The notes beneath the pieces are model-generated. The model saw only the letters and a list, made by a program, of their open reading frames with translations. It had not been told where the DNA came from and made no database searches. A stretch of 64,000 nt of DNA from an uncultured delta proteobacterium (GTDB taxonomy: Bacteria > Desulfobacterota > Desulfobacteria > Desulfobacterales > SpSt-501): contig CAWHEZ010000029.1 in NCBI GenBank assembly GCA_963828345.1, forward strand, positions 69,582-133,581. Direction: 5' to 3'. Of the stretch, positions 10,551-11,405 are shown piece after piece; the first letter of the stretch is position 1; each line of letters opens with the position of its first letter. The translations under genes were made by a program, and so were the position numbers.

Positions 10551-11405
10551 ATGCCGAAGCTGGTCAAGGAAAAGGGCAAAACGGGCAGGCTGCATGTCGA
10601 ATCGCACCTGATGGGCGAATCGCTCGTGAGCAAGAAGCTGCTGGCGCGCACCGAGGCCAAGGAGTACTTCCGCATGCACCCCGACATCAACATCATCAAG
10701 ATCGGGGGCCAGAGCATCATGGACCGGGGGGCGAAGGCGCTCTTGCCGATCCTGGACGTTCTCGTCGAGGCAAAGAATAAGCACAAGATCCTGCTGATGA
10801 CCGGGGGCGGCAGCCGCGCGCGGCATGTCTACAGCATCGGGGTCGACCTGGGGATGCCCCCGGGGGTCCTGTCGAAGCTCGGGGACAAGGTGTCCTGGCA
10901 GAACGCCGAGATGCTGGCCGTGCTGCTGTCCAAAAAGGGCGGGGTGAAGATCGGGCACGGCGACAACCTGGAGCAGCTCACCATGTTCTGCCGGCTGGGA
11001 TACCTGCCGATCACCTACGGCATCCCGCCGTACGGCCTTTTCGAGCACCCGCCGGAAATCGGTTCGATCCCGCCGCACCGCACGGACTGCGGCGCCTTCC
11101 TGCTGGCCGAGAACATCGGGGCGCGCAGCCTGATCTACCTCAAGGACGAGAAAGGGCTCTACGACCAGGACCCCAAAAAGGTGCCCGCATCGAAGCGCAA
11201 TACCCTTAAATTCTTCGACCGGATTTCGGCCACTGCACTGCTGAAGCTGGACCTGGACGATTTGATCGTGGAGCGGCCGGTCTTGACGTTCCTGCAGCGC
11301 GCCAAGTGCTTGAAGGAGCTCCAGATCATCGACGCGCTACGCCATCCCGAGCACATTTTGGATGCCTTGGCCGGGAAACACGTCGGGACGATCATTCACC
11401 AGTGA
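10551..11405 (+). CDS. Molybdenum(/tungsten) storage protein-like subunit (MosA/MosB homolog, amino-acid-kinase/UMP-kinase fold)
   Basis: IIKIGGQSIMDRG, GGGSRARHVYSIG, PPHRTDCGAFLLAE and AGKHVGTII closely parallel remembered Azotobacter MoSto subunit motifs. Confidence 0.7.
   Translation: MPKLVKEKGKTGRLHVESHLMGESLVSKKLLARTEAKEYFRMHPDINIIKIGGQSIMDRGAKALLPILDVLVEAKNKHKILLMTGGGSRARHVYSIGVDLGMPPGVLSKLGDKVSWQNAEMLAVLLSKKGGVKIGHGDNLEQLTMFCRLGYLPITYGIPPYGLFEHPPEIGSIPPHRTDCGAFLLAENIGARSLIYLKDEKGLYDQDPKKVPASKRNTLKFFDRISATALLKLDLDDLIVERPVLTFLQRAKCLKELQIIDALRHPEHILDALAGKHVGTIIHQ

Follow-up and report, generated by a model that had tools for sequence, protein, structure and literature searches.

A one-gene lineage of the molybdenum storage protein family with an adjacent small-protein gene in a tungstate-uptake neighbourhood of an uncultured delta proteobacterium

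Introduction

Can a protein of the molybdenum storage type work with a single kind of large subunit, and could it serve tungsten in an anaerobe? This question is raised by a gene at positions 10551–11405 (+ strand) of a 64,000-nucleotide stretch of DNA from an uncultured delta proteobacterium of the sulfate-reducer type (contig CAWHEZ010000029.1, positions 69,582 to 133,581), hereafter called the window. A preliminary description of the window, made from its sequence, had taken the gene for a lone subunit gene of the molybdenum storage protein (MoSto) embedded among tungstate-uptake genes, and had suggested a homomeric polyoxometalate store, possibly for tungsten. To our knowledge, MoSto is the only protein that builds polyoxometalate clusters with adenosine triphosphate (ATP). 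With the use of ATP, such proteins store about 100 atoms, and MoSto has been stated to have no known homologues (PMC6448029); a 2026 evolutionary survey took MosAB to be rare and of late origin (PMC13144720). All studies of MoSto structure and function that we found in the literature were on Azotobacter, and our search of the literature returned no description of a one-gene or homomeric MoSto, of a small partner protein, or of a MoSto-type tungsten store in anaerobes. The present analysis showed that the protein is a MoSto-family member of a distinct one-gene lineage and that unpaired MoSto genes co-occur with an adjacent gene for a protein of 74 amino acids (aa), which points to an unstudied version of MoSto in anaerobes.

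Results

Homology and fold of the 284-aa protein

The open reading frame (ORF) at 10551–11405 was intact, encoded 284 aa and was preceded by a ribosome-binding stretch, GGAAAGGGA. All the MoSto hallmark motifs quoted in the preliminary description were found in it (IKIGGQSIMDRG, PPHRTDCGAFLLAE and GKHVGTII). A phmmer search of the PDB sequences gave MosB of A. vinelandii as the best match (E 8.1e-62, 212 bits, query residues 15–282), while MosA was matched with E 9.1e-45 and archaeal uridine monophosphate (UMP) kinases with E 4e-7 at best. An AlphaFold2 monomer model (predicted template modelling score 0.76, core confident) was compared with the PDB by Foldseek, and the first 15 matches were MoSto chains (beta, E 7e-25 and 44% identity; alpha, E 3e-21 and 35–38% identity), with UMP kinases ranking after them (E 4e-12, 20% identity). 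Since both phmmer and Foldseek ranked MoSto first, the homology put forward in the preliminary description is real and strong; the similarity to MosA and MosB was whole-length in sequence and fold and well above that to UMP kinases. The only Pfam match of the protein was the general amino-acid-kinase family (64 bits). Public labels of such proteins were 'molybdenum storage protein' at JGI and 'amino acid kinase family protein' or 'uridine kinase' at NCBI.

The shared amino-acid-kinase fold and the weak matches to PyrH models could also suit a paralogue of UMP kinase with a part in nucleotide metabolism. However, the scores against the NCBIfam PyrH models were far under the cut-offs (TIGR02076, 61 bits with a cut-off of 158; TIGR02075, 20 bits with a cut-off of 244), and the genome had a true pyrH of its own on contig 47 (327 bits with a cut-off of 244). 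Alignment with this PyrH showed that the UMP-binding segments GNIFRG and AAGTGNP (GGGN-IFRG and AAGTGNPYFTTD in the alignment) were replaced in the 284-aa protein by GGGSRARH and the MoSto-specific insertion, and neither of the loop patterns GGGN-x-FRG and A-G-T-G-N-P-x-F-T-T-D was present. In a maximum-likelihood tree with MosA, MosB and PyrH the protein fell inside the MoSto-like sequences, from which PyrH was separated by a very long branch. The neighbouring genes are moreover those of metal uptake, and the identity to PyrH was only about 20%. The preliminary description had named clustering with PyrH and retention of the UMP-binding residues as signs that it was wrong; neither was seen, and we give a role as UMP kinase practically no credence.

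Copy number and distribution

The genome is a draft of 4.4 Mb in 51 contigs, 97.5% complete. Exactly one MoSto-like match was found in it even at E ≤ 10, so the search for a second mos paralogue returned the sole copy and bore out the single subunit gene of the preliminary description. At the gene level this is not the arrangement of two paralogous subunits from adjacent genes that form an (alpha-beta)3 hexamer. Among 61 relatives, 15 carried a MoSto-like gene, one copy each. In a set of 401 Desulfobacterota genomes chosen as an even sample of the phylum, 38 had a MoSto homologue, most of them as a single intact copy, and tandem adjacent paralogues were found in five (G062, G072, G105, G132 and G147). 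The single-contig genomes G053 and G314 had one MoSto-like copy each.

We also analyzed 80 species-level loci from public genomes, fetched with flanks of up to 8 kb. The protein was 76–99% identical to the query across these loci, which were variously labelled Desulfobacterales, Syntrophobacterales, Desulfatiglandales, SAR324 and others; the closest homologues came from metagenome-assembled genomes of uncultured 'delta proteobacterium' or Desulfatibacillum. No second copy was found within the fetched flanks in 79 of the 80 loci. As positive controls, the MosA cluster representative and lineage P0130 were each seen to have an adjacent second amino-acid-kinase gene. In locus L045 (9912–11058) a second MoSto-like gene, 47% identical and with its own small-protein gene, adjoined the first module.

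An ordinary two-subunit MoSto might be hidden here if the second gene lay elsewhere in the genome or had been lost by mis-assembly, a reservation also made in the preliminary description. The draft state of the genome and the frame errors in neighbouring genes of the assembly speak for this explanation. Against it, the search at E ≤ 10 was negative for a second match, all 15 positive relatives had one copy, the single-contig genomes G053 and G314 had one copy each, and the one-gene layout recurred in 79 of the 80 related loci; genuine pairs are tandem and easily seen. We therefore consider a missing second subunit gene extremely unlikely.

Decay to a relic without current function was likewise weighed. 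MoSto-like genes with internal stops or split in two were observed in G203, G254, G338 and G437, where the small-protein gene was still there, which indicates ongoing loss in some lineages. These damaged copies, together with the patchy occurrence of the gene in the genus, would fit a relic. However, the ORF of the query is intact, identity is kept at 76–99% over the 80 species-level genomes with labels from several orders, and promoter and partner gene have likewise been conserved, which makes a relic very improbable.

A probable 74-aa partner and candidate accessory genes

Downstream of the MoSto-like gene, and convergent with it, lies a gene at 11532–11756 (− strand) for a conserved basic protein of 74 aa and unrecognised fold, which is an obligate neighbour of single-copy MoSto genes. 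A total of 964 homologues were found; among the best 120 of the 964 there was no Pfam domain, and those that had a name were called 'hypothetical protein'. A Pfam search of the 74-aa protein itself also matched no domain. The family consensus was MAxKIF[VY]RERRKVExGEKKPRFRVVGV...H.RKKELEQIA, with F5, R7, E8, R9, K11, K17, P19, R20, V24, H37 and E42 invariant. The possibility that the protein is a remnant of the missing alpha subunit was examined by hhalign against the alpha-like profile and rejected (probability 0.5%).

Neighbours were counted only in those related loci that had enough downstream sequence. The 74-aa gene was adjacent to the MoSto-like gene in 72 of 74 assessable loci, a gene for a PadR-family regulator was present in 70 of 71, and a gene resembling the TiaS kinase was present in 50 of 63. 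The 401 Desulfobacterota genomes divided as follows: 32 had both the MoSto-like and the 74-aa gene, adjacent (some of the MoSto copies decayed), six had a MoSto-like gene only, namely the five genomes with tandem pairs and one with a gene fragment, and two had only a weak match to the small protein. This nearly clean partition implies that an unpaired MoSto gene comes with the 74-aa gene, whose product is 70–75 aa long across genomes, and that tandem pairs never carry it. A second single-gene clade shares only about 50% identity with the query; here the small gene was immediately upstream on the same strand in an operon-like order, at times with the TiaS-like gene ahead of it. In a third lineage (P0122), 16 bp separated the end of the TiaS-like gene from the MoSto-like gene. 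In one genome (G369:C36:72324-72928) the small-protein gene was present as two tandem copies upstream of one MoSto-like gene. Adjacency and co-occurrence of the two genes were thus observed directly, and the 74-aa protein is the likeliest second component of the system, with which the MoSto-like protein would probably work rather than alone.

In the window, the PadR-family gene (11832–12164, + strand; Pfam PadR, 2.2e-17) is divergent from the 74-aa gene, and a promoter-like site is present between them at 11756–11784. The gene at 12236–12979 (− strand), the last one after tupC, encodes a product of 247 aa that weakly resembles the kinase (TCKD) domain of TiaS (NCBIfam TiaS, 4.6e-5; Pfam TiaS_TCKD, 0.018). 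This TiaS-like protein is probably part of the same system.

Motifs and cluster-pocket residues

A motif table was built over 41 MoSto-family members. K-I-G-G-Q-S, [HY]-R-T-D and K-D-E-[DK]-G, the motifs of the beta-type ATP and oxyanion site, were present in the query (as IKIGGQS, HRTD and KDEKG) and in all single-gene lineages, in common with MosB and the beta-like members of pairs. Alpha-like members varied at the ATP-site positions; in MosA itself, the counterparts of the beta-type motifs of the query are KIGGR (with a deletion of one residue), HRAD and ENVDG. The lysine that matches Lys-beta42, a residue named in the title of PDB 6RIS ('Kb42S variant'), is kept in the KIGGQS of the query as Lys50, and many alpha-like members were without it. 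The single-gene lineages also had an N-terminal arm motif, R-L-H-[IV]-x-[ST]-x-L-M-G-E-S-L, which is common to MosA (K-H-V-x-S-P-L-A-R-Q-T-L) and the alpha-like members of pairs, with the shared pattern H-[IV]-x-S-x-L...[ES]-[ST]-L; MosB and the beta-like members do not have it. The MoSto-specific insertion (PPY...IPP-x-RTD), which takes the place of the PyrH UMP-binding loop, was present in the query as YGIPPYGLFEHPPEIGSIPPHRTD in an alignment with MosA, MosB and the PyrH of the same genome. In MoSto, according to a mechanistic paper of 2019, the beta site is said to bind molybdate and ATP, after which the alpha arm closes over it. If so, one chain would carry both halves of the device, the beta catalytic site and the alpha arm, which would fit a complex made from a single kind of large subunit.

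The residues of the cluster pocket were not conserved in the same way. Glu129 and His140 of the alpha subunit are cluster ligands according to the structural papers on MoSto. Together with His156, a residue that the title of PDB 6H6W mentions, they aligned with Gly135, Phe146 and Gly162 of the query, so it would be unsafe to expect storage in those pockets. The Met-beta149 position is Ile in the clade of the query and Met in the second single-gene clade. Thus, in comparison with MosB (PDB 2OGX, 4F6T, 6GU5 and 6RJ4, chain B), the query shares whole-length homology, the fold, the insertion and the ATP-site motifs including the match to Lys-beta42, but it lacks an alpha partner gene, has the MosA-type arm, has Ile for Met-beta149, is linked to the 74-aa gene, and comes from an anaerobe in which nifD was not found.

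Retained beta-type catalytic motifs beside lost alpha ligands could also mean that the protein is no store. It would then be an oxyanion-activating enzyme or chaperone whose beta-type site phosphorylates tungstate or molybdate, as proposed for MosB, and the metal would pass, perhaps through the 74-aa and TiaS-like proteins, to cofactor insertion or to discrimination of tungsten from molybdenum, with no large clusters formed. That the gene is tightly linked to those of a small basic and a kinase-fold protein, not to a second cage subunit, is consistent with this explanation, and in Desulfatitalea tepidiphila the module stands beside formate dehydrogenase and XdhC-like and MobA-like cofactor maturation genes. 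However, the similarity to MosB is whole-length and includes the MoSto-specific insertion and the C-terminal regions, and most cluster contacts in MoSto are non-covalent. UMP kinase PyrH is a homohexamer; as UMP kinases and MoSto both form hexamers, a cage is the default expectation. Such an activating enzyme is, in our judgement, unlikely, yet it deserves serious attention.

Phylogeny of single genes and tandem pairs

In the maximum-likelihood tree the single-gene lineages formed one clade (support 100/98). Its sister was the beta-like, downstream member of the Desulfobacterota tandem pairs (88/79), the alpha-like members formed another clade (95/97), and MosA and MosB of A. vinelandii stood at the unresolved base of the tree. 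The tandem pairs are thus alike to the query in family and phylum, but they consist of two adjacent paralogues, have no 74-aa gene, and in some of them the upstream member carries a fused membrane domain of about 700 aa. Such a fusion was observed in L101:8257-10341 (from G132) and in protein P0150, where alpha-like members with an N-terminal membrane-type region of approximately 700 aa stood beside a beta-like partner.

The tree was rooted with the PyrH of the same genome, on an outgroup branch of length 7.85. Because this branch is so long, the root is unsafe as a basis for calling the one-gene form ancestral or derived. A one-gene form that kept the ancestral state, with pairs that divided the roles, would be the simplest explanation of the mosaic of alpha-type and beta-type features, although the tree alone does not show it.

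Conserved promoter and candidate control elements

The preliminary description had given the gene its own TTGACA-N18-TATAGA promoter. This sequence was present at 10487–10516 (+ strand), with the −35 element TTGACA at 10487–10492, a spacer of 18 nucleotides and the −10 element TATAGA at 10511–10516, and it was conserved in relatives. The block CTTGACAA-N17-TATAGAG was invariant in nine genus-level relatives, in which the flanks had diverged beyond alignment, and such conservation speaks well, on comparative grounds, for a genuine promoter. A generic consensus promoter scan did not call it, because the −10 hexamer is without the final T. Between the convergent MoSto-like and 74-aa genes, a perfect, GC-rich inverted repeat of 10 bp with a loop of 13 nucleotides was found at 11434–11466 (CGGGATGCGC and GCGCATCCCG) and is a candidate two-way terminator hairpin. 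A further box, AGTCAATCGGATTA at 10351–10364, was kept in five relatives that also have the upstream TupA-like gene. Since this box stands between the start of the TupA-like gene and a promoter-like site (10414 to 10387, − strand), it is a candidate operator.

Molybdenum and tungsten uptake genes and tungsten enzymes

As the preliminary description had stated, the MoSto-like gene lies between a gene for a TupA-like binding protein and the tup operon. The former (9414–10277, − strand) encodes a periplasmic oxyanion-binding protein (PBP_like_2, 5e-36) that scored 133 bits against the TupA model with its cut-off of 400, and it is a paralogue rather than an equivalog. The operon tupA, tupB and tupC occupies 12984–15714 (− strand), with tupA at 14887–15714 (TupA, 356 bits); TupB was matched with 181 bits over residues 94–228 only and TupC as N-terminal and C-terminal pieces. 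Both tupB and tupC (12984–14855) run across several frames, the N-terminal segment of TupB being in the frame of ORF 14379–14855 and residues 94–228 in that of 14011–14703, which could reflect assembly error or real decay. Upstream of tupA a regulator gene with helix-turn-helix (HTH) and PBP_like domains was found at 15711–16658 (− strand; PF12727, 4e-67; HTH_17, 8e-11).

On the other side, a gene at 8004–9233 (+ strand, the start being a candidate) encodes a molybdate-type transporter of the MOT1 family in the major facilitator superfamily (PF16983, 3.5e-48). Divergent from it is a gene at 6767–7846 (− strand) for a regulator with a tyrosine-recombinase (integrase) fold and two TOBE domains (TOBE, 9e-29; Phage_integrase, 2.5e-8; Mop, 7.5e-32), which resembles the published TunR family of tungstate and molybdate regulators. 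Among the 42 related loci in which both flanks reached 6 kb, tup genes were present in 18–19 and the MOT1 transporter in 16.

The gene of the tungsten-type aldehyde:ferredoxin oxidoreductase (AOR) family that the preliminary description had placed at 48251–50024 (+ strand; AFOR_N and AFOR_C) exists, but it is split between two reading frames in the assembly. The frame changes near 48500–48580, with AFOR_N 2–80 in the frame of 48251 and AFOR_N 108–198 together with AFOR_C in the frame of 48576–50024. The genome as a whole gave nine AFOR_N (tungsten-type AOR-family) matches, and a search of it for nifD found none. Any stored metal would thus serve pterin enzymes and not nitrogenase. Given this context, the protein may plausibly prefer tungsten to molybdenum.

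Discussion

The one-gene MoSto lineage is most likely an ATP-dependent cage that handles molybdenum or tungsten. In our working model, which we favour with modest confidence, an ATP-using machine of the MoSto family takes up molybdate or tungstate and holds the metal inside the protein cage. The 284-aa chain, in which the motifs of the beta-type ATP and oxyanion site and of the alpha-type arm were observed, would most likely be the only kind of large subunit in the complex, which would probably be hexameric, as UMP kinases and MoSto are. The 74-aa basic protein may act as an additional small subunit or lid, or pass the metal on as a carrier, and the PadR regulator and the TiaS-like kinase-fold protein would be frequent accessory parts. 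With nine AOR-family genes and no nitrogenase, such a store would serve pterin-cofactor enzymes, not the iron-molybdenum cofactor (FeMo-cofactor), as a buffer of tungsten and possibly of molybdenum. The homomeric tungsten store of the preliminary description is thus borne out only in part, namely in MoSto-family membership, a single gene, a conserved promoter, nearby molybdenum and tungsten uptake genes, and a tungsten-rich anaerobe free of nitrogenase. The homomeric part fits less well, given the adjacent, strictly co-occurring 74-aa gene, and the replaced alpha ligands speak against taking storage in the Azotobacter pockets for granted.

Several results weigh against the cage model. The gene is patchy within the genus, where 12 of 27 genomes have it (one of them, G022, with a partial match at a contig end), and tup genes were found within 6 kb in only about 45% of the full-flank loci. 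Presence of the gene within the genus did not track the number of AOR genes, the mean AFOR_N count being about 9.8 with the gene and 9.9 without it, so this simple test gave the tungsten link no support. In the pocket, Glu129, His140 and His156 are replaced by Gly135, Phe146 and Gly162; the histidine of a KIGH motif, kept in both single-gene clades, adjoins the Glu129 position. The N-terminal 38 residues, with the arm, and the loop 159–173 were of low confidence in the AlphaFold2 monomer model. The AlphaFold2 model of the 74-aa protein (predicted local distance difference test score 65.6) gave no significant Foldseek match in the PDB, the best being chains like ribosomal protein S16 with E 0.38 and a template modelling score of about 0.3. 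Finally, both the cage and metal storage by the one-gene members are predictions.

Among known proteins, the Tub/Mop molbindins, TOBE-domain stores of tungsten and molybdenum, are alike to the predicted cage in a candidate role as intracellular buffers in tungsten-using anaerobes, but their fold is unrelated. Tub of Eubacterium limosum, described in 2025 as the first physiological tungsten store, is a TOBE-domain protein and of a different kind; it binds eight oxyanions per hexamer without ATP (PMC11980592). For the cage type itself there is a tungsten precedent in Azotobacter MoSto, which also holds polyoxotungstates (titles of PDB 2OGX and 7ZSE). A more far-reaching proposal, which we put forward as possible though it probably claims too much, is that the system is a homo-oligomeric MoSto-type cage with the alpha arm and beta site on one chain, an obligate basic subunit of 7–8 kDa, and servicing by the TiaS-like kinase. 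It would be the first cage-type, high-capacity tungsten store and an unrecognised class in strictly anaerobic, tungsten-dependent bacteria, and it may be ancestral to the two-subunit Azotobacter protein, which would have arisen from it by duplication and division of labour.

A one-gene system would be simpler for the study of the pump mechanism, with possibly six active sites instead of three, and it would inform the evolution of the division of labour between alpha and beta. A widespread one-gene form of MoSto in tungsten-rich anaerobes could show how such organisms hoard tungsten.

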